A stretch of 64,000 nt of DNA, from positions 480,001 through 544,000 of the forward strand of contig CAVXGR010000012.1 of assembly GCA_963761335.1 (NCBI GenBank), written 5' to 3'. This document shows, one piece after another, positions 8,810-24,839 of the stretch (position 1 is the first letter of the stretch; every line of letters starts with the position of its first letter). The position numbers and the translations under genes are program-made. This DNA comes from an uncultured delta proteobacterium (lineage in GTDB: Bacteria; Desulfobacterota; Binatia; HRBIN30; BPIQ01). The notes under the pieces were generated by a model that ran no database searches, was not told where the DNA came from, and was given only the letters and a program-made list of their open reading frames with translations.

Positions 8810-11800
8810 CTACCACGTATCGACGCAGGGCCGCTTTTTTCCTCGCCGCGACTGCGGCGGCGGCAGGGATCGCAACAGAGAGACTACCCATTGCCGCGAG
8901 TCGGCCGGGTCGATGACGTCGTCGATCTCGAAGTGGCTGGCGCTGTTGAGCGCCTTGCCGTGCTCGTAGGCGCGCTCCACCATGTGCTCGAAGAGCTGGC
9001 GGCGCTGTAGCGGATCCTCCACCGCCTCGAGCTCCTTGCGGAAGCCGAGCTTCACGGCGCCCTCGAGACCCATGCCCCCGAACTCACCGGTGGGCCAGGA
9101 GACGGTGAACAGCGGCGCCTTGTGACTGCCGCCGCCCATCGCCTGCGCTCCGAGCCCGTACGACTTGCGCAGCACGATGGTGAAGAAGGGCACGCTCAGG
9201 TTGGCGCCGTTGACGAACATGCGGCAGCAGTGGCGCACCAGTGCCGTCCTCTCCGCCTCCGGGCCGACCATGATCCCGGGGGTGTCGCAGAGGAAGAGGA
9301 TGGGAATGTCGAAGGCGTCGCAGAGCTGCATGAAGCGGCTGGCCTTGTCGGCGGCGGCGGCATCGATGGCGCCGGAGAGGTGCTTCGGATTGTTGGCGAT
9401 CACGCCGAGCGGCCGGCCCTCGAGGCGGATGAAAGCGGTCACCATCCCCAGACCGAAGTGACGGCGCAGCTCCAGCATCGAGCCGCTGTCCGCGAGCGTC
9501 TCGATCACCGAGCCTATCTCGTACACACGCAGCCGCTTCTCCGGAATGATGCCGCGCAGCCGCCGCTGGTCGGCGCACTCCCAGAAGGCGATCGGCCCCT
9601 GGAAGTAGGACAGGTACTGCTTGGCGACACGCACCGCCGCGACCTCGTCGGCGACGGCGATGTCGACCACGCCGTTCGGCACCTGCACGTCCATCGGGCC
9701 GACGTCCTCCGGCCGGAAGACGCCGAGCCCGCCGCCCTCGATCATCGCCGGACCGCCCATGCCGATATTGGAGTTCTCGGTGGCGATCACCACGTCGCAG
9801 CAGCCGAGCAACGCCGCGTTGCCGGCAAAGCAGCGGCCCGAGTTGATTCCCACCAGCGGCACCAGACCGCTCAGCCGTCCGAAGAGATGAAAGGCCATGC
9901 AGTCGAGGCCGGCCACGCCGGGCGCATCGGTGTCGCCGGGACGCCCGCCGCCGCCCTCGGTGAAGAAGATCACCGGAGCGCGCAGCCGCTCGGCGAGCTC
10001 GAACATGCGGTCTTTCTTGCGGTGGTTCTGAAACCCCTGCGTCCCGGCGAGAACCGTGTAGTCGTACGACATCACCACGCAGCGGGCACCGGGCTCGTCG
10101 AAGAGATCGCCATTGACGCTGCCGACGCCGGCGACCAGCCCATCGGCCGGGGTGCGCTGGATCAGATCCTCGACGGAGCGCCGCTGCCGCTGCGCCGCGA
10201 TCGCCAGGCTGCCGTACTCGACGAAGCTGCCCGGGTCGCAGAGATCGGCGACGTTTTCCCGCGCCGTGCGCTGCCCCGTCCTGCGGCGGCGGGCCACCGC
10301 CTCGGGGCGCTCGGCGTCGCCGGTGAGCGCATGGCGACGGCGCACCTCTTCGAGATCGGCGCGGGCGGCGTCGAGATCGAGGGGCGCCGCTGTCGATACG
10401 TCCTCCTCCGGTGCTTCGCCGAGCTGAATGACCACCAGCACCTGCCCCTCCGGCACCGTATCACCCTGCGCCACTACCAGATGGCGCACCACGCCGCTCG
10501 CCGGTGCGTGCACGACGTGCTCCATCTTCATGGCGTTCATCACCAGCAGCGCCTGGCCCTGGCGGACCGTCTCGCCCTCGGCGATGTCGATGCTGACGAT
10601 CGTCCCCTGCATGGACGAGTGCACCGCCACTGCGTCCTCGAGGCCCGCCAGATCCAGCCCCGGAGCGACCTGCGGCCGCGCCTCGGGCGGGGCGGACGAC
10701 GGCCCCCTCCCCTCACCTTTCCCATAGGCGAGCACCGCCAGCGGATCGGTCGCATCGACAGTCGCGCCGGTGCGCGCGGCGGCCGGGACCTCGGCGACCG
10801 CCGCCGCCAGCTCGGCGGCGTGCTCCTCGACGAAGGCCGTGTGAATGCGATTGGCCGTGAAGTCCGGCTGCTCCAGCAGGCGCGTCAGAAACGGCGCATT
10901 GGTCGCCACGCCGTCCACCCGCAGCTCGGCGAGCGCCCGTCGCGCTCGAGCCACGGCATCCGCAAAGCTCGGGGAGCTCGAGTGCGCCACCAGCTTGATG
11001 AGCAGCGCATCGAAGTGGGGGTTGGTCTGGTAGCCGGGATGAGCAGCGGTATCGACGCGCACCCCCGGACCGCTGGGCAGCCGCAGTGCGCCGATCCTCC
11101 CGCTGGCGGGCCGCGGCGCGCCGTCGGCGCCGAAGGTCTCGGCGTTGATTCGCAGCTGAATCGCGAAGCCGCGCGGCGCCGGCATGCGTGCCGGCTCGAG
11201 GCCGACGGCAGCCAGTGAAGCGCCGGAGGCGAGCTCCAGCTGAACGCGCACCAGGTCGACGCCGGTCACCTCCTCGGTGACGGTGTGCTCGACCTGCAGC
11301 CGGGGGTTCGCCTCGATGAAGGCGTACGCCGGCATCGCCGCTCCGCCTTGCCCCCACGGGCCGTGCGTGTCGATCGCCTCGGCGTCGACGAGAAACTCGA
11401 ATGTTCCGACATTGCGATAGCCGATCTCCTCCGCCATGCGCACCGCGTGGGCCGTGAGCCGCGCCCGCAGCTCGGGAGACAGGCTCGGGCAGGGCGCGAT
11501 CTCCACGAGCTTCTGATGGCGCCGCTGTAGGCTGCACTCGCGTTCGCCGAGGTGGACGACGGCGCCGGAACCGTCGCCGACGATCTGCACCTCGACGTGC
11601 CGCGCCCGCGGCATGAGCTGCTCGACGTAGAGGTCGCCGTTGCCGAATGCCTGCATCGCCTCGGAGCGACAGCGGGCGTAGGCATCGGCGATCTCGCCGG
11701 CTCGATGCACGACGCGCATGCCCCGTCCGCCGCCGCCGGCGACAGCCTTGATGGCAACGGCGGCGTCCTCGTCGAGCGAGGACAGAAACTCGATGGCCTC

Positions 11801-12217
11801 CTCGATGGTCACCGCTGCGGCGGAGCCGCGCAGCACGGGGACGCCGCAGCGTTCCGCCAGCGCCCGCGCCCGCGTCTTGTCACCGAGGATCTCCAGGGTC
11901 TCGGGTCGCGGGCCGACGAAGGCGATCCCCTCGGCCTCCACCCGGCGCGCCAGCGCGGCGCTCTCGCTGAGAAAGCCGTAGCCGGGATGCAGCGCGTCGC
12001 AGCCGCAGCTCCTGGCGGCGCCGAGCAGCTGCTCGGCATCGAGATAGGCCGCCGCGCCGGTGCCGCGCAGCGGCCGCGCCTCGCCAGCGAGGTGGGCGTG
12101 CAGCGCCCCAGCATCGTCCTCCGAATAGACTGCCACGCTGCGCATCCCGAGCTCGGCCGCACCCCGCATGATGCGCACGGCGATCTCTCCGCGGTTGGCG
12201 ACGAGAAGCTTCTTCAT
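8810..12217 (-). CDS. Single-chain biotin-dependent acyl-CoA carboxylase (BC-BCCP-CT)
   Basis: KLLVANRGEIA, HPGYGFLSE, RECSLQRRHQK, NPRLQVEH, biotin site AMKME, C-terminal carboxyltransferase domain. Confidence 0.93.
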   Translation of the reverse strand: MKKLLVANRGEIAVRIMRGAAELGMRSVAVYSEDDAGALHAHLAGEARPLRGTGAAAYLDAEQLLGAARSCGCDALHPGYGFLSESAALARRVEAEGIAFVGPRPETLEILGDKTRARALAERCGVPVLRGSAAAVTIEEAIEFLSSLDEDAAVAIKAVAGGGGRGMRVVHRAGEIADAYARCRSEAMQAFGNGDLYVEQLMPRARHVEVQIVGDGSGAVVHLGERECSLQRRHQKLVEIAPCPSLSPELRARLTAHAVRMAEEIGYRNVGTFEFLVDAEAIDTHGPWGQGGAAMPAYAFIEANPRLQVEHTVTEEVTGVDLVRVQLELASGASLAAVGLEPARMPAPRGFAIQLRINAETFGADGAPRPASGRIGALRLPSGPGVRVDTAAHPGYQTNPHFDALLIKLVAHSSSPSFADAVARARRALAELRVDGVATNAPFLTRLLEQPDFTANRIHTAFVEEHAAELAAAVAEVPAAARTGATVDATDPLAVLAYGKGEGRGPSSAPPEARPQVAPGLDLAGLEDAVAVHSSMQGTIVSIDIAEGETVRQGQALLVMNAMKMEHVVHAPASGVVRHLVVAQGDTVPEGQVLVVIQLGEAPEEDVSTAAPLDLDAARADLEEVRRRHALTGDAERPEAVARRRRTGQRTARENVADLCDPGSFVEYGSLAIAAQRQRRSVEDLIQRTPADGLVAGVGSVNGDLFDEPGARCVVMSYDYTVLAGTQGFQNHRKKDRMFELAERLRAPVIFFTEGGGGRPGDTDAPGVAGLDCMAFHLFGRLSGLVPLVGINSGRCFAGNAALLGCCDVVIATENSNIGMGGPAMIEGGGLGVFRPEDVGPMDVQVPNGVVDIAVADEVAAVRVAKQYLSYFQGPIAFWECADQRRLRGIIPEKRLRVYEIGSVIETLADSGSMLELRRHFGLGMVTAFIRLEGRPLGVIANNPKHLSGAIDAAAADKASRFMQLCDAFDIPILFLCDTPGIMVGPEAERTALVRHCCRMFVNGANLSVPFFTIVLRKSYGLGAQAMGGGSHKAPLFTVSWPTGEFGGMGLEGAVKLGFRKELEAVEDPLQRRQLFEHMVERAYEHGKALNSASHFEIDDVIDPADSRQWVVSLLRSLPPPQSRRGKKRPCVDTW

Positions 12218-13432: not shown

Positions 13433-14395
13433 ATGGGCGGCTTTGATCTGGGGCGTGCGCGCCTGGCGCTTTCCCGGCATCCACGCCTGTACCGGCGGCT
13501 GCGGGAAGCGCGCTGGGCGGCCTGGCGCCTGCGCGCCGGCTCGACCCCGGGCCTCTCCTTCGATTCCGAGGGCGTCCTCTGCACCAGTCCCGAGCGCCTC
13601 CGGCCGCGGGGGGCACGGCGCCGTCCCTGCGGCGACGACGACGAGATCACCGTGCGCATCGGCCGCAATGGAGAGCTCCTGCTGGAAACCGGACAGCGAC
13701 GGCTCGAGCTCGCCAAGCGACAAGGCGCGCCGCAGATCGCCTTCAAGGTGAGCGGTCGCCATCGGCAATGGGTGCGGCTCCGCCGCCAGCTTCTCGTCTA
13801 CGCCGGGGAGAACGGCGGCCGGCTCTATCAGCCGATCACCCATCCCGACCTCTGCGATCTGTCCTCGCATCACGGCGAACGGCGGTGGGCGCTGATCGAA
13901 GCGAGCCTGCCGATCGGCGGAGGAAGCGTTTTGGACGTCGGCGCCAACCTGGGCTACTTCTGCCACAAGCTGGAGACGCGGGGATTCGCTTGCTGGGCGG
14001 TCGAGGACAGCCTGCAGGTCGGCTATTTTCTCGAGCGCTTGCGCCGCGCCGAAGGACGCCGCTTCCGGACGTTCATCGGCTCGATCTTCGACTTTCACGA
14101 GCGCAAGGAGTTCGACCTGCTTCTGGCCCTGAACGTCTTTCACCACTTCCTCAAGACGCGGGAGGACCACGACGCCCTGATGCACCTGCTGCGGCGCCTG
14201 AACATCGAGCATCTCTATCTGGAGACGCATCACCCAGACGAGCCACAGATGGCCGGCGCCTACCGCAACTACCCGCCGGATGAGTATGTCCGCTTCGTGC
14301 TGGAGCACGCCGGGCTGATGGCGGCGCGCTTCATCGGCGAGACCGACGCAGGCCGCCGGCTGTACCTTCTCTCGCGACAGGCCGTACCAAGCTAG
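13433..14395 (+). CDS. Class I SAM-dependent methyltransferase
   Basis: VLDVGANLGYF and FDLLLALNVFHHF motifs; start uncertain. Confidence 0.8.
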   Translation: MGGFDLGRARLALSRHPRLYRRLREARWAAWRLRAGSTPGLSFDSEGVLCTSPERLRPRGARRRPCGDDDEITVRIGRNGELLLETGQRRLELAKRQGAPQIAFKVSGRHRQWVRLRRQLLVYAGENGGRLYQPITHPDLCDLSSHHGERRWALIEASLPIGGGSVLDVGANLGYFCHKLETRGFACWAVEDSLQVGYFLERLRRAEGRRFRTFIGSIFDFHERKEFDLLLALNVFHHFLKTREDHDALMHLLRRLNIEHLYLETHHPDEPQMAGAYRNYPPDEYVRFVLEHAGLMAARFIGETDAGRRLYLLSRQAVPS

Positions 14396-14576
14396 CCCGC
14401 ATTTCTCACCAGCTTTCGTCGCGAGACCGCGGAGAGGCCCGCAGATCAAGGCCGCACGGACTGAGGCCGACGCAGGCATAGTCGTGCACTATGTCGAGGA
14501 GGCCGGAGGGAGTACGGCCTTGAGATGTGGGCCTATCGGCGGTCGCAGCAGAAAGTTGGTGAGAAATGCGGGCTAG
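14392..14576. mobile_element. MITE-like element with terminal inverted repeats bounded by CTAG
   Basis: ctagcccgcatttctcaccagctttc (14392-14417) vs gaaagttggtgagaaatgcgggctag (14551-14576): 25/26 complementary; no transposase inside. Confidence 0.75.
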
Positions 14577-15125
14577 AGATCGATCCCAGAGGTGGCCGGG
14601 GGGAGGGGGTGGCAGCGGCCGTGCTCCGCTGCCACCCCGCGTTAATCGATTGCGGGATCTGCGTATCCCGCGCTTTCGCAAAGAGATCAGTGCACCGTGC
14701 GTGCCAATCTGTCGAAACGTCCGCAAGGCCGGACAGCATTGGATCTGGAGCCGCCGTGCTCCGCAGCGGTCGCGCTACGCAAGAGAGTGAATCGGGAGAT
14801 AGCGACGAGAAGGTGGCGTGATTCTCTGGAAGCAATCGCTTCCACCGCTGGCGCCTGGGTCTTCCGCATGCACGTGATCAGCGCCAGCGCATGTCATGAC
14901 CCGTACGTGCCCGCCGGCACCCGCTCGAGCAATTTTTTCTCATCCTTGCGGAAGCCGGCGGCGAGCCGCATCCGGCAAGGTAGGCGGTGCAAGGCGACCT
15001 TCCCTGGCAAGTCATATGCTGCCCGACATGGCCGGAGGGACTGAGATACGAAACGCTCACTGACGCCTGCCGATCTCGCGCATCCCGACCTCGTCGCCGG
15101 CGCTCTGAGCAGCCTCCTGCGCTGG

Positions 15126-16088
15126 GTGATGCATCCGGTGCGCAACACCCTGGACGACCTCGCCGTCTACGAGGGACGGCCAGTGGAAGAGCTTTTTCCG
15201 CCCCCCAAGCGCGTGCCGGATATGAGCGTGAGCGAGCGCTGGCGGCTCCCCGGTCTGATCAGCGAGGACATCCGCTTCCGCTCCCTCTACGTCCCACTCG
15301 AGCCCAAGTTTCGCCGGCGCTACCGGGAGCACTACCGCGAAGCGCACGACGTATGCGCGCGGCGGATCCGCCCGGCGGCGGCGCGCCGGCGCCCTCGCCT
15401 TCTGTACCTGCATGGGTACATGCAACCGGAAACCTATATCGAGGAGCTGGCGCTGCTGGCGACGATGGCGCTGCAGCTGAACGTGGAGGTCATCCAGATG
15501 CAGTTCCCCTACCACGGGCGCCGCACGCCGCGCGGCTCGTTCTTCAGCGGGGAGCTGTACTGGACGGCCGACCTGGTGCGCAGCTTCGAGGCCCTGCGCC
15601 AGACACTGCTCGACGCGCGCACCCTCTTGAGCTGCCTCCTCCGAGACGACGACCGCCCCGTGGGGATCTCGGGACTCAGCCTCGGCGGAGCGCTGGCGCT
15701 ATGCCTCACCTGCCTGGAAGGGAACTTCGCGTTCTCGGTGCCGCTGATCGCGCACATGGACCTGGAGGCCCTGGTCGCCGACGCGCCGGTTCTCGGCGGC
15801 ATGCGGCGCGATCTTCGCTCTTTCGGCTGGGGGCGCCAGGAGTTCGGCAAATTCGTCGCTGCCGTAGGCTGGCACGAGCTGCGTCCCAAGCTGCCCGCGG
15901 AGCGGATTCTGCTGATCGCCGCCTCGAACGACCGCTTCTTCGATCCGCGCCTGGTCGAGCGCCTGTGGAAGAGCTGGGGCAAGCCGGCGATCCGCTGGTA
16001 CCCCACCAGTCACATGGGCTTCATCGCGCACCTCCCGGAGGCACTGCGCCTGATGCGCCAGTTCATCGACCGACAGGCCGCCGAATGA
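15126..16088 (+). CDS. Alpha/beta hydrolase
   Basis: YLHGY, nucleophile GLSLGG, downstream Asp (NDRFF) and His (TSHMG). Confidence 0.82.
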   Translation: MMHPVRNTLDDLAVYEGRPVEELFPPPKRVPDMSVSERWRLPGLISEDIRFRSLYVPLEPKFRRRYREHYREAHDVCARRIRPAAARRRPRLLYLHGYMQPETYIEELALLATMALQLNVEVIQMQFPYHGRRTPRGSFFSGELYWTADLVRSFEALRQTLLDARTLLSCLLRDDDRPVGISGLSLGGALALCLTCLEGNFAFSVPLIAHMDLEALVADAPVLGGMRRDLRSFGWGRQEFGKFVAAVGWHELRPKLPAERILLIAASNDRFFDPRLVERLWKSWGKPAIRWYPTSHMGFIAHLPEALRLMRQFIDRQAAE

Positions 16089-16413
16089 AGCTCCCGTTTC
16101 CCGTTGCCTTCGCCTTCGGGAGCGGTGGCATCGACGACCTCGTTCGGGTCACCGAGCCGCGCATCGGCGCTCGGCTATGTCCCCGGCGACGCGCAGACCG
16201 ATGTCTCGTTGCTCTCCGTCCGATTCTCGTGCTGCCAAACGGGACAGTTCATACGCCCATCTCGAGCACGAGTCGGGCAGCTCGGCCGCCCGCACCCATC
16301 AGCGTGAGCGCTTCGTGCGCGCGCCGGAGATACGTTTCGCACTGCCCCGCCCGGCGTGCTTGCGAAGTCGTTCCGGAATGGATAGGGGGAGTGGAGATTC
16401 GGGCGCAACGCGC

Positions 16414-16674
16414 ATGGGGCACACGATCGACCGCAATCGGATCACCTGGGACGAGATCGATGGGGAGACCCTCATCATCGATACCGAGAGCGGCTACTAT
16501 TTCTCGCTCGACGGCGTCGGCAGTATCGTCTGGAGCATGCTGACGGCAGGCGCCGGCGAGGACGCCATCGTCGACAGGATCATCGCTGAGTACGACGTCG
16601 ATGGGTCGACGGTGCGAGAGGACGTGTACTCACTCGTCCAATCGTTGCAACGCGAGCAGCTGGTCGGTCGGTGA
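16414..16674 (+). CDS. PqqD-family RiPP recognition element (stand-alone RRE)
   Basis: 86 aa: WDEIDGETLIIDTESGYYFSLDGVGSIVWSML...IIAEYDVD...VREDVYSLVQSLQREQLV. Confidence 0.9.
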   Translation: MGHTIDRNRITWDEIDGETLIIDTESGYYFSLDGVGSIVWSMLTAGAGEDAIVDRIIAEYDVDGSTVREDVYSLVQSLQREQLVGR

Positions 16675-16693
16675 ACGAAGGAGGAGCTGTCTG

Positions 16694-16849
16694 ATGAAGA
16701 AGCCGACGATGAATCGCGACGGAAATGCTGAGCGCGACACCCCTCAGAGCGACACGGCGCACCCGCTCACGATGCCGAAGAAGGTCTATCAGAAACCGGT
16801 GCTGTCGAAACACGAGCAACTGCACGGCATCGGGCTCGGCTCGCCCTGA
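16694..16849 (+). CDS. Putative RiPP precursor peptide (51 aa)
   Basis: MKKPTMNRDGNAERDTPQSDTAHPLTMPKKVYQKPVLSKHEQLHGIGLGSP; YxxPxL motif; AAGGAGG upstream; sits between two RRE-encoding genes. Confidence 0.8.
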   Translation: MKKPTMNRDGNAERDTPQSDTAHPLTMPKKVYQKPVLSKHEQLHGIGLGSP

Positions 16850-16917
16850 GCCCATCGCGTCCGCTTCGCTCCGCCTCGGCAACCCGGGCGGAGGTCCACA
16901 ACCTGCCGATCGGTACG

Positions 16918-18087
16918 GTGCCGATAAGCATCGTCATTGCGGTCCACCCCGGTCATCACCGCACCTCGTTCCTCGGACGTTGCCTGCAGGCGGTGGTGGA
17001 GCAGGTGAATCCGCCGCAGTGCCTCGAAGTGATCCTGGTCGGCGACGGCGTGCAACTCGACCCGTCGCTGGTGCCGGACGGCCTGGCGGCCCGCCGACAT
17101 TCGTTCTCCACCCCGGTCGGCGCCAGCGCGGCGCGCAATCAGGGGCTGCGCATGGCAACCGGCGAATGGGTGGCGTTTCTCGATGCCGACTGTTGGCCGC
17201 GACCGGACTGGCTGGAACGTCTGTACGCCGGTCTGGTTCGCGAAGGCGCCGCCGGCTGCGGCGGCAAGACCCTGCAGTCTCACGATCAACGCGCCCACGA
17301 CGATCGGCTGTCCGGGACCCGCGCCGTGTTGCCGTGCGCCGTGCTGAACAACGTGCTCTTCCGGCGCTCCGTGCTGGACGAGATCGGCGGCTTCGATGAG
17401 CGCCTGGTCGTCTACGCGGAAGAGCCCGACCTGTGCTGGCGGATTTGCCTGAAGGGGCATCGGATCGCCTTCGCGCCCGACGCGATCGTCGAGCACCAGA
17501 CCCACAAGACGACGCGCAAGTTCGTCTTCTACGGGCGGGCACTGCGGCAGCTGGAGTGCAAGTTCGGGCCGCTGCTCGATTTCTCCCGCCGCGAGGAGCT
17601 GCGCTGGATCGCCGAGTCGTATCGGCGCGCGCATGCCGGTGATGGCCCGCTGAGCCTGGCCCAGCGCGCCCGGATGTTGGCCATCGGTTGGGGATACGCT
17701 GGGCGCTGGGCGGCCGACCGGCTCGGGCGTCCGCCCCGGGTGCAAGCGCTGGACCTGTCCGAGCGCACGCTGCAGCAGCAGCATCTGATCCCGGCACTGG
17801 CCGTGGCGGTCGAGGGCCACAAGGTGACCAGACCCAATCACGTGCTCTGGTGGAAGGTAGAGGGTGGATGCTCCGTCCTCGACCTGGCGCATCGGACGCG
17901 CTTCGCGCTCACCGGTGCCGCCGCCGATATCTGGGTCGGCGTGATGAGCGGCCTCGGGGCGGACGAGCTGCGCGGACGACTGGCCGCCGACTTCGAGGTT
18001 CGCCCGGAGACGCTGGCCGCGGACATCGACGAGTTCCTGGGGGCGATGCTGCGCCAGGGCCTGCTGGCGCGCGCGGAGAGCGCATGA
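16918..18087 (+). CDS. Family 2 glycosyltransferase fused to C-terminal PqqD/RRE domain
   Basis: GASAARNQGL, FLDADC, GGFDERL..EEPDLCWR; C-terminal VLDLAHRTRFALTGAAADIW...LAADFEV...LAADIDEFLGAMLRQGLL. Confidence 0.85.
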   Translation: MPISIVIAVHPGHHRTSFLGRCLQAVVEQVNPPQCLEVILVGDGVQLDPSLVPDGLAARRHSFSTPVGASAARNQGLRMATGEWVAFLDADCWPRPDWLERLYAGLVREGAAGCGGKTLQSHDQRAHDDRLSGTRAVLPCAVLNNVLFRRSVLDEIGGFDERLVVYAEEPDLCWRICLKGHRIAFAPDAIVEHQTHKTTRKFVFYGRALRQLECKFGPLLDFSRREELRWIAESYRRAHAGDGPLSLAQRARMLAIGWGYAGRWAADRLGRPPRVQALDLSERTLQQQHLIPALAVAVEGHKVTRPNHVLWWKVEGGCSVLDLAHRTRFALTGAAADIWVGVMSGLGADELRGRLAADFEVRPETLAADIDEFLGAMLRQGLLARAESA

Positions 18088-18659
18088 CCACCGAGTCGCG
18101 AGGCGCCGCCGCCCGGCGGCTGCGCGACACCTTCGCAGCGCACAAAGGAGAGAGCTGGCTGCGCTTTCAGGGCCGTAGCATGCTGCCGATGCTGCGCGAT
18201 GGCGATCTGCTGCGGGTTCGCCATGGCCCGCCATCCGCGATCGGCTGCGGCGCCATCGTGGTGTTCAACGACGGCGACTCGACCATCGTGCACCGCTTGC
18301 TCTATCGCCGGGGACGCGGAGCGGTTCTGGTGACCAAGGGGGACAATGCGTGGCGGATCGATCGGCCGCTCGGTCCCGAGCAGGTGATCGGCGCCGTATG
18401 CGAGATCCGGCGCGGTGCGCACCGCATTCCAGTCGACCGCGGTGAGTGGGGGCGGGTATCGCGCGGCATCGCGCTGGCGTCGATGCTCGAGGGGCTCGCG
18501 TACGCGGGCGCGGTTGCCATCCGCCGGCGGTGCCTTCCGCACCCCCTGGTCGGTCGCCTCGGCGAAGCGCGCCTTCTGGCGGCCGCCGGACGGTGCCGGC
18601 GCGCCATCCTCGATCGGGTGTTGCGCGTCACGGGCGCGACCGGCGCGGCCGCGGAATGA
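18084..18659 (+). CDS. S24/S26-family peptidase
   Basis: GRSMLPMLRDGD, IVHRL, TKGDNA...D..VIGAV; ATGA coupling with upstream gene. Confidence 0.85.
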   Translation: MTTESRGAAARRLRDTFAAHKGESWLRFQGRSMLPMLRDGDLLRVRHGPPSAIGCGAIVVFNDGDSTIVHRLLYRRGRGAVLVTKGDNAWRIDRPLGPEQVIGAVCEIRRGAHRIPVDRGEWGRVSRGIALASMLEGLAYAGAVAIRRRCLPHPLVGRLGEARLLAAAGRCRRAILDRVLRVTGATGAAAE

Positions 18660-18669
18660 GCCGTAGACC

Positions 18670-19698
18670 GTGACGGCAGGCGAATACTTCGAGGCCGTGC
18701 AGGCAGCCTATGCGGACGCCGAGCGGCGCGCCGGCGGGCCGGTGGAGCGCGTGTTTCGCGTCGCCGGGCATCCGCTCCGCCTGCGCTTCGCCGGGCCCGC
18801 CATGGTTTCGGACGCCACCGCCGCCTTCGACCATCTGCCGTCGTCCGGCGAGCGTGCCGAATTCTCCGTGTGTCTGTTCGATAGCGCCTCGACCGGAAGC
18901 GAGCTGCCGCCAATGCCGCGCTCGAGCGGGCCGCACGACGTGCGCGGCGATATTCCCGAGCTGTGCGACGAACGGTTTATCGTCAGCTACTTGCGTTGGA
19001 ACGGGGTGCTCGGCTTGCTCGACCGAAGCCGACGGCGGGCGCTCTTCTGGATTCGTGCCGCGAGCGATTTCCCGTTCAATGAACGCGGCTCGCCACTGCT
19101 GATGAGCCTCCAGGGCTGGCTGGCCGGCCACGATCTGCAGTTGATGCACGCCGGTGCCGTCGGCGGCGCCAACGGGGGCGTGCTGCTCTGCGGCCGTGGC
19201 GGTGCGGGGAAGTCGACCACCGCGATCGCCTGTCTCGTCGCCGGACTCTCGTATGTGGCGGACGACTACTGCGTGCTCGCCGCGCGGCCGCGGCCGGTGG
19301 CCCACAGCCTGTACAACTCCGGCAAGCTGCACTGCGCCGGACTGCACCGGTTCCCGGAGCTGTCCATCGGCGCGGCGTCTCGCGGCGGCGACGACAAGGC
19401 GCTCTTCTTCCTTCACGCACTCTACCCGGAGCGCATGGCCACCAGCGTGCCGATCCGGGCGCTGGTGCTTCCCGTCATCCACGACGGGGCCGACTGCACG
19501 CTCGAGCCCGTGCCGCGCGTCGAGGCGTTGCGCGCCATGGTGAGCAGCACCATCGCCCAGATTCCCGGCGCCAACGGGGGGGTGCTGACCGCCGGCGCGG
19601 CGTTCGTGCGGCAGCTACCCTGCTACCAACTGCGGATCGGCTCCGACCCGACGCGCATCGCCGCGCGCATTGAGGGCCTGCTGCGCGGGGGCATATGA
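18670..19698 (+). CDS. HPr kinase-like P-loop kinase
   Basis: LMHAGAV...GVLLCGRGGAGKSTT...LSYVADD. Confidence 0.85.
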   Translation: MTAGEYFEAVQAAYADAERRAGGPVERVFRVAGHPLRLRFAGPAMVSDATAAFDHLPSSGERAEFSVCLFDSASTGSELPPMPRSSGPHDVRGDIPELCDERFIVSYLRWNGVLGLLDRSRRRALFWIRAASDFPFNERGSPLLMSLQGWLAGHDLQLMHAGAVGGANGGVLLCGRGGAGKSTTAIACLVAGLSYVADDYCVLAARPRPVAHSLYNSGKLHCAGLHRFPELSIGAASRGGDDKALFFLHALYPERMATSVPIRALVLPVIHDGADCTLEPVPRVEALRAMVSSTIAQIPGANGGVLTAGAAFVRQLPCYQLRIGSDPTRIAARIEGLLRGGI

Positions 19699-20813
19699 AG
19701 ATCCTCATGGCCACCGAGCGGTTCCTCCCCGAGGTCGGCGGCGTCGAGGTGTTCACCGCTCGACTCGCGTCGGCGCTGAAGGAACGCGGCCACGAAATCG
19801 CTGTCGTCACCTCGCGCAGCGGACTCACCGAATGCGAGGAGGACCGCCAGGGAGCTGTGCCGGTGTACCGCCTGCCGTTCGAGGCCAGCCTGCGCGCGCG
19901 CGACTACAGACGCGTCATCGCCCTGCGCCGGCGACTCGCCGCGCTCAAGGAGAACCTGCGTCCGGACGTCGTGCACCTCAACACGTCGGGGGCGAGCCTG
20001 CTGTTCCATCTGCTCACTCGCCGAACCGCGCCTGCTCCCCTCGTCCTCACCGTCCACTGGCTGCCCAATTCGGAGAGCGTGGCCGTGGTCTGCGCCCAGG
20101 CGCTCGCCGCGGCCGACTGGATCGTGGGGGTAACGCGTGGATGCCTGGACGAGGCCCTGCTGCTCAATCCGACCATCGCCAACCGCTCATCTGTCGTCTA
20201 CAACAGTCTGCCGCCCATCACTCTCTCGCCCACACCGCTTCGCTTCGATCCGCCGAAGCTGCTCTGTCTCGGCCGGCTCGAGGCGCAGAAGGGTTTTGAC
20301 GTCGCGCTACACGCCCTGGCCGAGGTGTGCCGGCACTTCCCGACGGCGCGGCTCACGGTCGCCGGCGATGGCACCCAGCGTCCGGCCCTCGAAAGCCTTG
20401 CCATCGAGCTCGGCCTGACGGCCGCCGTCCGCTTCATGGGTTGGGTCGCGCCCGACGACGTCCCTCAGCTGATCAACGAGCACACCGTGGTCGTGATGCC
20501 ATCGCGTTACGAGCCTTTTGGTCTGGTGGCGCTGCAGGCGGCGCAGATGTGCCGGCCGCTGGTGGCATCGCGCATCGCGGGACTGTCGGAAGTCGTCCGC
20601 GACGGCGATACCGGCCTGCTCTGCGACGCCAACGACCCCGACGCATTCGCCGCCGCGATCAACGTCCTGCTTCGGCAACCAGCCGCCGCCGCGCACATGG
20701 GCCAGCGGTCACGCAACTACGTCGAGACGGCCTTCCGCTGGGACCAGCAGGTGAGCGCCTATGAGACCCTCTTCCGCAGGGTCCACGCCCAAGCCAGCGG
20801 TCCGTACGCCTGA
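19695..20813 (+). CDS. Family 4 glycosyltransferase
   Basis: GGVE, GRLEAQKG, PSRYEPFGLVALQA, GLSEVVRDGDTG. Confidence 0.92.
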   Translation: MKILMATERFLPEVGGVEVFTARLASALKERGHEIAVVTSRSGLTECEEDRQGAVPVYRLPFEASLRARDYRRVIALRRRLAALKENLRPDVVHLNTSGASLLFHLLTRRTAPAPLVLTVHWLPNSESVAVVCAQALAAADWIVGVTRGCLDEALLLNPTIANRSSVVYNSLPPITLSPTPLRFDPPKLLCLGRLEAQKGFDVALHALAEVCRHFPTARLTVAGDGTQRPALESLAIELGLTAAVRFMGWVAPDDVPQLINEHTVVVMPSRYEPFGLVALQAAQMCRPLVASRIAGLSEVVRDGDTGLLCDANDPDAFAAAINVLLRQPAAAAHMGQRSRNYVETAFRWDQQVSAYETLFRRVHAQASGPYA

Positions 20814-20987
20814 GCGCCTCTGGCCAGGAAGCGCACGATGAAGACCTGGCGCTGGTGAGCAACGAGCGCCTCTCGGACGCGCACGGAGTGCGCCGGATCT
20901 GGCGATGGCGATAGCGCAATAGACCCCTTCTCCGTGCAGGTCCGGTATACCCGCGCGCCACTGGTCTTCCCACCCTGCTAAATGGCC

Positions 20988-21414
20988 GGGCGCCGCGTGC
21001 ACGCGCGCACGGCGCTCGCGCAGCAGCGTCTCGTACGCCACTTCCTGCGTCAGTGGGTGCTTGAATGTGTACTCGGCCACTGGGTAGAGCGCCTGCTCGT
21101 AGACGAACTCGGCCTGTGCCAGGGTGCGCAGCGCGGCGGGCACGTCGGTCGCGGCCGCGTCTCGCGGCGCGACGTCGGCGAGCACCTGCGTCAGCACCGG
21201 CTCGCTGAGCTCCTTGCCGATCACCGCAGCGGTCTGCAGCACCTGCTTCTCGCGCTCTGCCAATCGATCGATGCGTGCCGCCAACACGGCGTGCACGCTG
21301 GCGGGGACGTCGAGCGTCTTCGAGCTCGAACTGCCGGCGCAGCACGCGCAGCGACACGCGGCCGTTCTCCTGCAGGTGGTTCCGCGCTTCGCTGATGATC
21401 TCGAGCAGCCTCAT
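20988..21414 (-). pseudogene. Chimeric remnant of cyclase/ATPase/TPR paralog
   Basis: MRLLEIISEARNHLQENGRVSLRVLRRQFELED joined out of frame to VPASVHAVLAARIDRL...YTFKHPLTQEVAY, then truncated. Confidence 0.75.
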
Positions 21415-24400
21415 GACGTCGATTCCGACAACAGGAGGGAAATGCGTTGCGCCTGCAACGGCGCGCCGATCTGTTCGTAAAGTTGATGAGATTCGCGCAG
21501 CAACTGCACGCGCGTCGCGTCATCGCCGAGGAGGGCTGCCAGCTCGGCGCGCCACTCGCAGAGCGCGGGCGCGAGTGTCTTCGCTCCCGTGCGTTCGATC
21601 AGTGCGGCTGCGCTGGCAAGGGCAGCTTCCGCGGCATCGCGGGCCGCCGCTCCGTCGCGGCGGAGGAGGGCGCGCGCCATGATGCCGTGGGCCTCGGCTT
21701 CGGCGTGGCCACCCAGCGAGCGTCGGCAGAGCGCGATCGCCTCCTCGGCCGCCGCCAGCGCGGCCGACAGATCACCGGCTTGCAGCAGGGCCCAGGCCAA
21801 AAGCATCGCGGAATCGCCCGCAGCGTGCTTTTCCACACGCCCGCAGATCTCCAGGGCGGCACGCGCCGGCGCGATGGCGTCGGCCGCCCGCCCCGCCGCG
21901 AGGTGTGCGCGGGCGAAGGCAAACTGCGCGTACCCGGCCAGCGACAACGGCTCCCCCAGCTTGCGGCCGATCTCTTCGAGCTGCCGCGCGCTGGTGAGTG
22001 CCCGGTCTGCGTCATGAGCGTTGTGGTAGGCCGCGGCCGCCACGACCATGGCGTACCCGATCAACTCCGGTGTGCCGTCCTCCTCGAGCAGACGGCGGGT
22101 GCGTGCGAGCGCTTCGAGCCCCTCCGGCAAGCGGCCCACCCACGTGAGGCAATAGCTGCGCCAGAACGAGAGCAGGGAATAGGGATTGAAGCCAATGATC
22201 CATTCCCCGGAAGGAATGTGGCGCGGAAAGCGAGCAAGCGCTTCCTCCGCCATCTGGAGTGCCTCGGGGAATCGTGCGGCAAAGCTGAGCGCGTCGACGA
22301 GGTAGACACAGGCATTGGCCTGCATCCCAACGTCATCGATCTCGAGTGCCACGCGCCGGTTCTCGATTGCCACCTCGAGATACTCCGCCACGTCGCCGTC
22401 GCCACAGCGCGCGCGGCCATAGACCATCGACAGGCTCAGATGGGCGCGGCGATCGCCAATCGCGTTGGCGAGGGTCTGCCCTTCCTCCAAGAGGGCCTTC
22501 GCCTCGTCGAGCCCCGTGCCGACCCGCCAGCTCCCGTTCAGCAGCTGCATACAGGCAACGATGCCGAGGGCGGCTGCCTCGTGGTCGTCCGGTAGCTGAC
22601 GCAAGAGCTTGCGCACTTGGCCCCAGTGGTGAGTTGCGGCGGCAAAGTCGGTGCGCCCCACCCACTCGGCCGCGCGCCGGTGCCAGCGCGCCCCGCTGAG
22701 CGCCTCGCCGGCCTCCTCCCAGTGGTGCGCCAGCAGCGCCGCGCGTTCGTCGAGATGGTCAGGGTCGTGCAGCTCGATCGCCCGCGCCACGGCGGCGTGC
22801 ACCTGACGGCGACGCTCCTTGAGCTGGCTGCCGAGCGCCACTTCCTGGGTGAGCGGATGCTTGAAGGCGTACTCAACGACCGGATAGATCGCCTGCTCGT
22901 GGATGAACTCGGCACGGCGCAGAGCCGCGAGTGCGGCCTTCAGCTCTTCGGTGGGTAGCTCCGCCACTGCCGCCAGCAACGGCTCGGGGAAGTCCTTGCC
23001 GATCACCGACGCCACTTGCAGCAGCCGCTTCTCGCGCTCCGGCAGCCGGTCGATGCGCGCCGCCAGTACCGCCTGCACGGTGGCCGGCACCGTGAGCTCC
23101 TCGATCGGCGTCACCAGGCGATACGCACCGCGTTCGCCTTCGAGATGCCCCGACTCGATGAGTGTCTGCGCTACCTCCTCGGTGAAGAACGGGTTGCCGC
23201 CGGTACGCGCGTGGATCGGCGCCGTCAGGGCGGCCAGGCTCGGGTCGGTGCCGAGCAGATCCACCAGCAACTCGCCGATCGCGTCGCGCCCGAGCGGCGT
23301 CAGCGGGATCTGCCGGTACCACGACTTCTGCATCCAGTCGGCGCGGTGCTCGGGGCGGAAGTTGAGCAGCAGGAGATTGCGGCTGCCGGCGCGCGCGTCG
23401 ACCATGTGCTCGAGGAACTCGCCGCTCGCATCGTCGAGCCAGTGCAGGTCCTCGACCATCGTCACCGTCGGCTGCTCCTCGCTGACGCTCTGGATCACCT
23501 GACGCATCACGGCGATGATCTGGCGCTGGCGCGCCTCGGGGTCGAGCCGCGGCGCCGGGCGCTGCGAATCGGCGACGCCGAGGAAATCGAAGAGCAGCGG
23601 CAGCGCGTCGGCAAAGCTGTTGTCGAGCAGCACCATGCGCCCGGCGATCTTCTCGCGCGCGCTGCGATCGTCGTCCTCGAGCGTGATGCCGTAGTAGGCG
23701 CGGAACACCTCGAGGATGGGTAGGAAGGGGATGTTGCGGCCGTGGGCGACGGCGCGGCCCTCGTAGACGTGCATGCCGCGGGCGCGGCAGCGCTCGAGGA
23801 ACTCGAAGCACAGGCGACTCTTGCCGGTGCCGGCATCGGCCACGATCCCCACCACCTGGCCGTTGCCCGCCGCAGTCTGCTCGAGCGCATCCTCGAGCGT
23901 GCGCAGATCGGCGGCGCGCCCGACGAAGCGCGAGAGGCCGCGGGCGCGTGAGATGTCGAAGCGCGAACGCGCGGCGCCGATGCCGACGAGGCGGTGGACG
24001 CGCACCGGCTCCGCGACGCCCTTGACGCGAAAGTCGCCCAGATCCTCCAGCGCGAAGTAGCCGCCGGCGAGCGCCGCCGTCGCCGCCGTAAGGTAACACG
24101 AGTCCGGCGAGGCGAGCGCTTCCATCCGCTGTGCCAGACCCACCGTGTGGCCCTGCGCCGTGTAGTCCATGCGCAGGTCATCGCCGATCTTGCCGACCAC
24201 GACCGCGCCCGAGTTGATGCCCATGCGGGTCGAGAAGCCGACGCCGTGCTCGCGCTTCACCTCGGTGGCGTAGCGGGCGATCTCGTCGCGCAGATGCAGC
24301 GCCGCGTAGCAGGCGCGCTGGGCGTGATCCTCGTGGGCGATCGGCGCGCCGAAGAGCGCCATGATCCCGTCGCCGGTGTACTGGTTCAGGGTGCCCTCGA

Positions 24401-24839
24401 AGCGGTGCACGCCTTCGGTGAGGATCTGAAAGAAGCGGTCGAGGATCGTGTGCCACGCTTCCGGGTCGAGCTGTTCAGCGAGTTCCATCGACCCTTTCAC
24501 GTCGGCGAACAGAACGGTGACCTGCTTGCGCTCGCCTTCGAGAGCGGACTTCGATTGCAGGATTTTGTCGGCGAGGTGTTTGGGGGTGTAGGCGCGAGGA
24601 CTGCTGCCAAGTCGAGAGTCGACAGTCGAGAGTCGAGAGTTTTCGACCTTCCCATTTTTGACTGTAGACTGTTGACTGTCGACTAGATTCACGCCGCACT
24701 CGCCGCAGAACTTCGCACCGGAGGGCAGGTTGCTACCGCAGCTCTCGCAGCGCCGGGCGATGGGCGTTCCGCACTCGAGGCAGAACTTCACCCGCTCGGG
24801 GTTGACGTTGCCGCAACTTGCGCAGTTCATGGGAGTCAC
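21411..24839 (-). CDS. Double zinc ribbon - class III adenylate/guanylate cyclase - ATPase - TPR protein (intact)
   Basis: Four CxxC; ERKQVTVLFADVKGS; TGDG; Walker A ADAGTGKSRL; EDLHWLD; GGNPFF; helical-repeat C-terminus. Confidence 0.92.
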   Translation of the reverse strand: MTPMNCASCGNVNPERVKFCLECGTPIARRCESCGSNLPSGAKFCGECGVNLVDSQQSTVKNGKVENSRLSTVDSRLGSSPRAYTPKHLADKILQSKSALEGERKQVTVLFADVKGSMELAEQLDPEAWHTILDRFFQILTEGVHRFEGTLNQYTGDGIMALFGAPIAHEDHAQRACYAALHLRDEIARYATEVKREHGVGFSTRMGINSGAVVVGKIGDDLRMDYTAQGHTVGLAQRMEALASPDSCYLTAATAALAGGYFALEDLGDFRVKGVAEPVRVHRLVGIGAARSRFDISRARGLSRFVGRAADLRTLEDALEQTAAGNGQVVGIVADAGTGKSRLCFEFLERCRARGMHVYEGRAVAHGRNIPFLPILEVFRAYYGITLEDDDRSAREKIAGRMVLLDNSFADALPLLFDFLGVADSQRPAPRLDPEARQRQIIAVMRQVIQSVSEEQPTVTMVEDLHWLDDASGEFLEHMVDARAGSRNLLLLNFRPEHRADWMQKSWYRQIPLTPLGRDAIGELLVDLLGTDPSLAALTAPIHARTGGNPFFTEEVAQTLIESGHLEGERGAYRLVTPIEELTVPATVQAVLAARIDRLPEREKRLLQVASVIGKDFPEPLLAAVAELPTEELKAALAALRRAEFIHEQAIYPVVEYAFKHPLTQEVALGSQLKERRRQVHAAVARAIELHDPDHLDERAALLAHHWEEAGEALSGARWHRRAAEWVGRTDFAAATHHWGQVRKLLRQLPDDHEAAALGIVACMQLLNGSWRVGTGLDEAKALLEEGQTLANAIGDRRAHLSLSMVYGRARCGDGDVAEYLEVAIENRRVALEIDDVGMQANACVYLVDALSFAARFPEALQMAEEALARFPRHIPSGEWIIGFNPYSLLSFWRSYCLTWVGRLPEGLEALARTRRLLEEDGTPELIGYAMVVAAAAYHNAHDADRALTSARQLEEIGRKLGEPLSLAGYAQFAFARAHLAAGRAADAIAPARAALEICGRVEKHAAGDSAMLLAWALLQAGDLSAALAAAEEAIALCRRSLGGHAEAEAHGIMARALLRRDGAAARDAAEAALASAAALIERTGAKTLAPALCEWRAELAALLGDDATRVQLLRESHQLYEQIGAPLQAQRISLLLSESTS
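24611..24685. repeat. Heptamer-repeat hairpin within coding linker
   Basis: gtcgaga/gtcgaca units facing tgactgt/agactgt/cgact units; encodes VDSQQSTV...SRLSTVDSRL. Confidence 0.75.

Follow-up and report, generated by a model that had tools for sequence, protein, structure and literature searches.

The closest described counterparts of the locus reported here are the linear polyphosphorylated peptide (LPP) clusters of Bacillota, arranged as lppA-K-B-S-D-N, for which the accessible parts of the original account (Popov et al., Nat Commun 2026, PMC13381572) describe a precursor peptide (LppA) of 35-200 amino acids with the leader motif YxxPxVLxHQxIxFETxxS, an RRE protein (LppB), an HprK-like kinase (LppK), an MsbA-like exporter (LppD), a PF14907 transferase (LppN) plus a signal-peptidase-like protease of archaeal type (LppS; catalytic residues S29, H68 and D93). 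LppK adds one to four phosphates to Ser3 of the core and leaves the S3T and S3Y variants unphosphorylated, while LppS cleaves after T-1 in a reaction that requires the RRE protein LppB and in which F-3, E-2, T-1 and L-10 matter (PMC13381572). The authors of that account did not identify the mature LPP product, and in the same accessible parts LPPs are stated to be restricted to Bacillota (PMC13381572). A second point of reference is provided by phosphorylated or phosphoglycosylated lasso peptides, among them paeninodin (PadeK) and pseudomycoidin (kinase and nucleotidyltransferase): according to the available portions of a published account, the lasso HprK homologue acts on the hydroxyl of the C-terminal Ser of the precursor and is largely indifferent to the remainder of the peptide, after which sugars are joined to the phosphate (PMC8498205).

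We analyzed a stretch of 64,000 nucleotides (C12:480001-544000 of source genome G000; hereafter, the window) with a G+C content of 66.8%, from a genome whose source sequencing comprises four DNA runs of one soil study, no RNA run being listed. It contains a tightly packed, co-directional set of genes in the order PqqD (RRE), peptide, GT2::RRE, protease, HprK-like kinase and GT4, with the peptide second:

16414-16674, plus strand: discrete PqqD-family RRE, 86 aa (PF05402, E 4.5e-15)
16677-16683, plus strand: Shine-Dalgarno sequence AAGGAGG, read directly, spaced 10 nt from the peptide ATG
16694-16849, plus strand: precursor-like peptide, 51 aa (N-terminal 28 aa hydrophilic; K29-G49 conserved; S50-P51 variable)
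16918-18087, plus strand: GT2 glycosyltransferase with C-terminal PqqD/RRE domain, 389 aa (PF00535, E 7e-19, residues 13-133; PF05402, E 1.4e-6, residues 328-383)
18084-18659, plus strand: ER/archaeal-type signal-peptidase-I-like (S24/S26) protease, 191 aa (PF00717, E 1.7e-6)
18670-19698, plus strand: HprK-like P-loop kinase, 342 aa (PF07475, E 3.3e-4, and TIGR04352, E 1e-6, both below cut-off)
19695-20813, plus strand: GT4 (GT-B) glycosyltransferase, 372 aa (PF00534, E 4.4e-39; PF13439, E 3.2e-21)

This inventory bears out a preliminary description of the DNA that spoke of both RREs and of kinase and glycosyltransferase assays: one RRE is free and the other is C-terminal in the GT2 protein, and a kinase gene and two glycosyltransferase genes share the operon of the peptide. 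The discrete PqqD protein, whose start we set at Met80 of the ORF 16177-16674, matches the lasso PqqD chaperone models NF033530 and NF033536 below their cut-offs, has TbiB1 (5v1u, E 2.4e-13) as its best solved relative, and is 50-71% identical to its counterparts in related genome G032 and metagenome contigs L178 and L177 (51%, 60% and 73%, respectively, by the search figures). The top NCBIfam match of the GT2::RRE protein is MftF, at 124.8 bits against a cut-off of 280 bits; fusions of glycosyltransferases with RREs have as such been noted bioinformatically, in the part of one report open to us (PMC12710340). The protease, whose ATG overlaps the GT2::RRE stop codon (ATGA), scores 35.7 bits against TIGR02228 (cut-off 51.85) and aligns to SEC11A/C, the catalytic subunits of human signal peptidase, over its motifs for Ser (SM.P), His (IVHR) and Asp (TKGDN), and is therefore assigned to the ER/archaeal type; the orthologue in G032 is 39% identical and keeps the SM.P, VHR and KGDN motifs. 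The kinase aligns to the HPr kinase 1jb1 over its P-loop and ADD motif and is 40% identical to its G032 orthologue, and the GT4 ATG overlaps the kinase stop codon. Upstream, an alpha/beta-hydrolase gene (15126-16088) lies 325 nt away and is not conserved in relatives. Two large genes elsewhere in the window are recorded in passing: one on the minus strand at 21411-24839, converging on the operon end, encodes a protein of 1142 aa that combines a double zinc ribbon and an adenylate/guanylate cyclase domain with an AAA_16 ATPase and TPR repeats, and another at 8810-12217, also on the minus strand, encodes a 1135-aa fused acyl-CoA carboxylase (biotin carboxylase, biotinyl and carboxyltransferase domains).

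Searches with Pfam models gave five matches to PF14907 and seven to PF00664 (ABC_membrane) in the genome, none of them in C12:480001-544000, and the genome's matches to PF00733 (Asn_synthase) and PF13471 (Transglut_core3) likewise all fall outside the window, the nearest PF13471 match lying at C12:566377; within the window the cluster is thus without lasso cyclase, B2 protease, nucleotidyltransferase and exporter. The absence of cyclase and B2 protease from the window rules out the lasso reading, and the product of this operon cannot be a lasso.

The peptide ORF begins with ATG, 19 nt beyond the PqqD stop codon, and runs for 51 codons to a product ending in KKVYQKPVLSKHEQLHGIGLGSP before the stop, a translation that agrees with the one quoted earlier, as does the strong AAGGAGG in front of it. 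A homologous ORF was found directly 3' of the PqqD stop in each of the four loci in which PqqD is at least 50% identical: the window, G032 (L063:10399-10536), L177 (1428-1574) and L178 (1935-2087). In G032 the PqqD gene is followed by its own ribosome binding site and a 45-codon ORF, in L178 the peptide ATG overlaps the PqqD stop, and GGAGG-type sites precede the peptide ORFs of both. All four peptides share M1, K29, K30, Y32, P35, L37, K39, E41, Q42, L43, I46 and G49, and their end points agree within one residue, although the residues found there differ (SP in the window, S in L177, LH in L178 and YL in G032). Over the 21 conserved codons of these peptides, pN/pS lies between 0.16 and 0.44 in all six pairs, with 57-66% of synonymous sites different. 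In-frame stops shortly upstream of the ORF in L177 and L178 fix the short form there, and sequence 3' of the peptide stops shows no conservation among the loci compared, so that neither an error of assembly nor recent truncation accounts for the stop. The peptide ORF is a real gene under purifying selection; conservation and pN/pS rule out a chance ORF.

Database searches placed this gene in no established family. The peptide matched nothing in Pfam, NCBIfam or the PDB; a search of 5.8 billion proteins with the peptide at near lengths returned only itself; and the four-row peptide alignment, applied to longer protein lengths, gave 2394 word-sharing candidates, none of them at E up to 10, a result that speaks weakly against any fused form bearing precisely the motif of that alignment. 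The ESM Atlas yielded a best score of 0.86 and unnamed clusters that offered no lead, a metagenome scan with a two-row peptide alignment gave 394 pattern matches of which none was confirmed, and a five-peptide profile found no second copy in the six-frame translation of the source genome. Folding of the spacer RNA (16845-16925) gave a z-score of 0.20, the same as shuffled sequences, and a scan of 14300-21500 revealed no promoter-like and two terminator-like sites, within shuffle expectation.

Compared by eye with the LPP motif and with LppA sequences listed in part 1 of supplementary file 2 (PMC13381572), the window peptide has Y, P, L, H, Q, an L in place of I, and the final S in ungapped register, and F-E-T is absent. 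Relative to Tyr32, it carries P, K, H, Q and L at +3, +7, +8, +10 and +11, respectively, the pattern seen in LppA examples (..KHQQI.. versus ..KHEQL..), and Ser50 lies at +18, the offset of LppA Ser3. The leader in this register ends at Gly47 and leaves a core of only L-G-S-P, with L-G-S, I-G-L-H and L-G-Y-L in the homologues. A leader with almost no core, here of YxxPxL type, was correctly recognized in the preliminary description, which set the peptide in lasso register, with Tyr32 at -17; read in that way, Glu41 indeed occupies the position of the usual Gly and Gly47 that of the usual Thr, G-S-P is all that remains, and no Asp or Glu follows Glu41 that could form a macrolactam. Its designation of the leader as lasso-type is revised here to probably LPP-type, on the fit of K39, H40, Q42 and L43 to the LPP motif and the signal-peptidase-like protease of an operon that lacks, in the window, cyclase and B2 protease.

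The same description proposed Ser50 as the acceptor. That proposal gains support because the published homologue LppA is polyphosphorylated at Ser3, onto which Ser50 aligns without gaps (PMC13381572, in the parts accessible), and loses some because the Ser is not kept throughout: the position is Ser in the window and L177, Leu in L178 and Tyr in G032, and again Ser in a distant fifth peptide from genome G168. It is the leader, as far as Gly49, that the homologues have in common, rather than the terminal Gly-Ser that had been singled out. In all, Ser occupies Tyr +18 in three of the five short peptides (window, L177 and G168), and all five stop 18-19 residues after the Tyr.

The kinase retrieved matches in 18 of 61 related genomes, the best in G032, where the cluster is split over two contig ends in the order PqqD, 45-codon ORF, GT2::RRE, protease, kinase and phosphoesterase, so that both protease and GT2::RRE are kept; this is the only other locus that shows the protease region, the L177 and L178 contigs being too short for kinase or protease. 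A metagenome scan with the PqqD alignment gave five loci, with L177 and L178 close and the other three (L179-L181, PqqD 29-34% identical), in which tblastn found no homologous peptide, dropped. In L178 a GT2::RRE gene follows the peptide (68% identical over 63 residues), and in L177 a 63%-identical GT4 gene lies just before PqqD and a tRNA-Leu gene after the peptide ORF. Sixteen homologues of the GT2::RRE protein carry both domains, at 38-85% identity, all metagenomic and without informative names; a scan of genome contigs with it kept 80 loci, all generic GT2 at 25-39% identity, the longest match reaching residue 301, so that none covers the RRE domain (328-383).

Peptide searches through 401 genomes of the class were strong only in the source genome and G032, and through 401 genomes of the phylum only in the source genome. 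The class-wide search also gave a weak match in G168 (E 0.0015), the source of the fifth peptide: 29 aa long, at 9202-9291 of L174 (G168:C318), it has a YxxP leader, Thr at -1 and the end F-S-S-H, and is the only precursor-like ORF of a cluster comprising GT2, PF14907, PqqD, Transglut_core3, an Asn synthase with a strong GATase domain and a B12-radical-SAM gene. Eleven other weak class-wide matches were set aside, L153 and L161 as ordinary lasso-type precursors and the rest as noise-like, as were six of seven weak phylum-wide matches in six other genomes (all but L212), which represent other YxxP peptides or noise.

Several small ORFs met elsewhere merit separate record. Three of them, in the phylum of the window (L188, G740:C117, at ~1300; L189, G763:C151, at ~1325; L196, G453:C15, at ~2192), adjoin signal-peptidase-like genes, lying just upstream of the peptidase gene in L188 and L189, and combine a start rich in K with a YxxP leader and, as core, ~25-60 Cys-rich residues; they may represent another family of peptides processed by such proteases outside Bacillota. 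At L211 (G520:C17; ~1351-1419 and ~1513-1578) a tandem pair of small ORFs shows a YQKPVL leader with Thr at lasso -2 and only a seven-residue end, G-D-S-N-P-P-E. Two further small ORFs, L207 and L213 (G576), combine a window-like leader, F-V-K-P-x-L-x-R-[HR]-E-R-L-H-Q-V-A, with a 19-residue core rich in Gly, Ser and Ala, and have none of the window-operon enzymes within 1.5 kb.

A different arrangement of the same elements emerged from 14 other PqqD-kinase loci, 12 in relatives and two in the source genome, where the PqqD ORF continues through a variable linker into a tail of the form [YFW]xxPxLxxYxDMxxLLxLDP, followed by IH[DE]VD..GWP or PxPxx..W. When aligned with MAFFT, the window peptide falls on these 14 fused tails without internal gaps and ends exactly at their D-P, of which the Asp is present in 14 of 14 and the Pro in 13. 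This invariant Asp lies, in every tail, 18 residues after the YxxP aromatic, the offset of LppA Ser3, and judged from its position could be the acceptor of the cassette or a mimic of phosphoserine. Four annotated fused loci all contain PF14907 and several GT2/GT4 genes, and two contain an ABC exporter, while a leader-peptidase-type protease was detected in none of the 14 (tblastn, E below 1e-3). The source genome itself carries three more HprK-like kinase loci, L002 (C12:807040-811053), L003 (C4:10928-14950) and L004 (C16:350228-353890), with PF14907 genes in the vicinity; in two of the three, PqqD has the built-in leader-like tail, of the LDPIHDVD..GWP and LDPPVP types. As a separate observation, the L002 kinase and PqqD tail are nearly identical to those of L038 (G019:C10), from a genome of another family (branch lengths 0.008 and 0.024; tails differing in ~3 residues), which points to recent transfer or a binning artefact.

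In a kinase tree of 19 rows (midpoint-rooted, with a very long branch to the outgroup L174; L175 gave no match and is absent), the window kinase groups with those of G032 and the fused-type locus L032 (92/94), and this group lies inside a ten-row clade (97/99) consisting otherwise mostly of fused cassettes of the 'LDPIH[DE]VD..GWP' type, one row of which (L034) gave no PqqD match. The split form probably derives from the fused one, although the tree topology does not prove the direction. Full-text searches of the open literature yielded no description of either the tiny-core form or the fused cassette.

We consider the chances about even that the product of this ORF is the substrate peptide in a RiPP operon of LPP-like type, with glycosyltransferases and outside Bacillota. 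Under this proposal, residues K29-G49 would constitute the leader, in which Tyr32-x-x-Pro35-x-Leu37 would dock in beta-strand form on the free PqqD RRE and, probably, on the GT2-fused RRE as well; with the leader ending at Gly47, only Leu48-Gly49-Ser50-Pro51 would be left as core. The HprK-like kinase would phosphorylate Ser50, at the position of LppA Ser3, the GT2::RRE and GT4 enzymes would place sugars on or beside this phosphate, and the signal-peptidase-like protease, assisted by an RRE, would remove the leader. Candidate cleavage sites are G47|L48, which would follow the LPP register; L48|G49, which would put Ile46 at -3, where LppA has Phe; and G49|S50, which would fit small residues at -1 and -3. 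At any of these three the released piece would comprise 1-4 residues, and the expected product is a very small phospho(glyco)peptide or a peptide-primed glycan rather than a folded peptide.

Modelling of the peptide with the RREs, which the preliminary description had suggested, lends weak support to the pairing with the free PqqD protein. The predicted complex scored 0.56 against 0.02 for the best control, past a mark reached by 116 of 157 solved complexes and two of 215 mismatched pairs, in a band (up to 0.60) that holds only 18 of those 157 and both of the passing mismatches; at least 93% of contacts agreed between runs, and partner pLDDT was at least 56. Because similar RRE-leader complexes have been solved (5v1v), this pass may only mirror likeness or memory.

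Several features count against an LPP-type interpretation. The acceptor position is Leu in L178 and Tyr in G032; positions -3 to -1 read G/R-I-G/A, not F-E-T; the window lacks a PF14907 nucleotidyltransferase and an ABC exporter, which both belong to the core genes of LPP clusters; the RRE scores higher against lasso TbiB1 (53 bits) than against 9x90_B and 9x8z_B (36 and 28 bits), which, going by their titles, we take to be structures of the LPP paper; the kinase nests among those of the self-leadered, fused-tail cassettes without a protease; and close homologues number only four.

How the peptide would be used can be specified further, and here our assignments are more tentative. One possibility, which we hold to fall clearly short of probable, is that the peptide is a disposable primer, a 47-residue leader with a stub of 3-4 residues, on whose Ser50 the kinase, GT2::RRE and GT4 would build a phosphate-linked sugar chain before the protease frees a phosphoglycosylated tri- or tetrapeptide. 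Were this so, the core would be the smallest of any RiPP yet seen, and in LPP-type systems it would be the construction on residue 3 that matters, not the peptide itself.

The best-surviving alternative, which we regard as unlikely without dismissing it, is that the peptide is an adaptor with no core, a detached self-leader that fills the two RREs and thereby assembles or activates the kinase and glycosyltransferases for some other acceptor (a glycan, lipid or protein), its last one or two residues forming a functionless stub. The gapless alignment onto the 14 fused tails, with its stop exactly at the conserved D-P, agrees with such a role, as do the position of the kinase with G032 and L032 inside the fused-cassette clade, the varied terminal residues (SP, S, LH, YL), the lack of an exporter in the window and the resemblance of the hydrophilic N-terminal 24-31 residues to the linker of the fused proteins. 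Set against it is the leader-peptidase-type protease, which is kept in the split form (window and G032) and detected at none of the 14 fused loci, a pattern suggestive of cutting of the free peptide; the occurrence of Ser at the LPP phosphosite offset in three of five peptides, versus approximately 6% expected for Ser; and the lack, in the literature examined, of any documented natural trans-acting leader of such a kind. The adaptor nonetheless stays in contention because Ser occupies +18 in only two of the four close homologues, F-E-T and equivalents of LppN and LppD are missing, the RRE is TbiB1-like, and the nearest kin of the kinase belong to loci without the protease.

Considerably less probable is a follower-type precursor, in which the variable N-terminal 24-31 residues would be modified on Ser or Thr and the conserved C-terminal block would be a recognition follower taken off by the protease. 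An N-terminal part varying in sequence and length beside a conserved C-terminal block is the usual pattern of core versus recognition sequence, Ser or Thr occurs in the former in all four homologues, and this part greatly exceeds the 2-10 residues found before the Tyr in most of the listed LppA examples; against this, none of its Ser or Thr positions is conserved, a similar variable hydrophilic stretch serves as linker in the proteins with fused tails, and LPP and lasso biology, as presented in the accessible parts of both accounts, place the core C-terminal to YxxP (PMC13381572, PMC8498205). Least credible of all, to the point of being scarcely tenable, is the view of the ORF as a pseudogene, left by decay of a lasso or LPP precursor after a premature stop had removed the core: the leader is lasso-like and the distant G168 peptide adjoins a transglutaminase-like protease and an Asn-synthase-like gene, but end points equal within one residue at four loci with synonymous sites near saturation, a ribosome binding site at each locus, the unconserved sequence beyond the stops, the lack of Asn-synthase and Transglut_core3 genes in the window and the failure of the five-peptide profile to find a second precursor in the genome all speak against it.

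Returning to the LPP-like substrate, we note that a leader followed by L-G-S-P, with sugar transferases in the operon of which one bears an RRE, would be the simplest substrate for LPP-type chemistry, whose elucidation would then require no more than four enzymes and a synthetic 51-mer. It would extend signal-peptidase-processed, kinase-tailored peptides beyond Bacillota and, if correctly interpreted, its split form would connect LPP RiPPs with self-leadered PqqD cassettes. As the first free-standing homologue of the self-leader tail, the peptide also helps in choosing between substrate and adaptor roles for that tail.

Comparison with the described systems defines what is shared and what is distinct. 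Like the fused cassettes, the window has a homologous kinase and RRE and a peptide that aligns on the built-in tail; unlike them, the tail is a separate gene in all four loci (stop, ribosome binding site, new ATG), it stops at the D-P position with Asp replaced by Ser, Tyr or Leu, and the window adds the leader protease and GT2::RRE while lacking PF14907. Lasso cores comprise ~13 or more residues with Asp or Glu at position 7-9, unlike the 3-4 residues, none of them acidic, that follow the leader here. The resemblance to the lasso tailoring module lies in the HprK homologue and in the substrate end: a C-terminal Ser is the known preference of PadeK, and the L177 peptide terminates in Ser and the window peptide in Ser-Pro; the window differs in lacking cyclase, B2 protease and PF14907 and in having GT2 and GT4 as its sugar enzymes. 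In mycofactocin (with the glycosyltransferase MftF) and the pearlins, small molecules are built at the C-terminus of a scaffold peptide, and the likeness is one of logic only, namely an RRE-bound scaffold, chemistry on its last residues and release by a protease; the window has neither a radical-SAM nor a LanB-like enzyme, its MftF match is far below cut-off, and it is not a member of these systems. With the LPP clusters, finally, it shares a signal-peptidase-I-like protease with Ser, His and Asp motifs, an RRE adjoining the precursor and an HprK-like kinase. It departs from them in its core of 3-4 residues, where the shortest LppA in part 1 of the published table has 39 aa and a core of ~18, and in the 24-31 residues that precede the Tyr, against 2-10 in most of the LppA examples listed there (PMC13381572). 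Also unlike the LPP clusters are its G/R-I-G/A in place of the F-E-T cleavage motif, its lack of LppN and LppD equivalents within the window, its TbiB1-like RRE, the GT2::RRE fusion and GT4 inside its operon, and its host, a soil bacterium of 66.8% G+C outside Bacillota. Notable relative to LPP-type RiPPs are a putative core of three to four residues, a glycosyltransferase that bears an RRE, a host that does not belong to Bacillota, and a proposed link to the self-leadered cassette.
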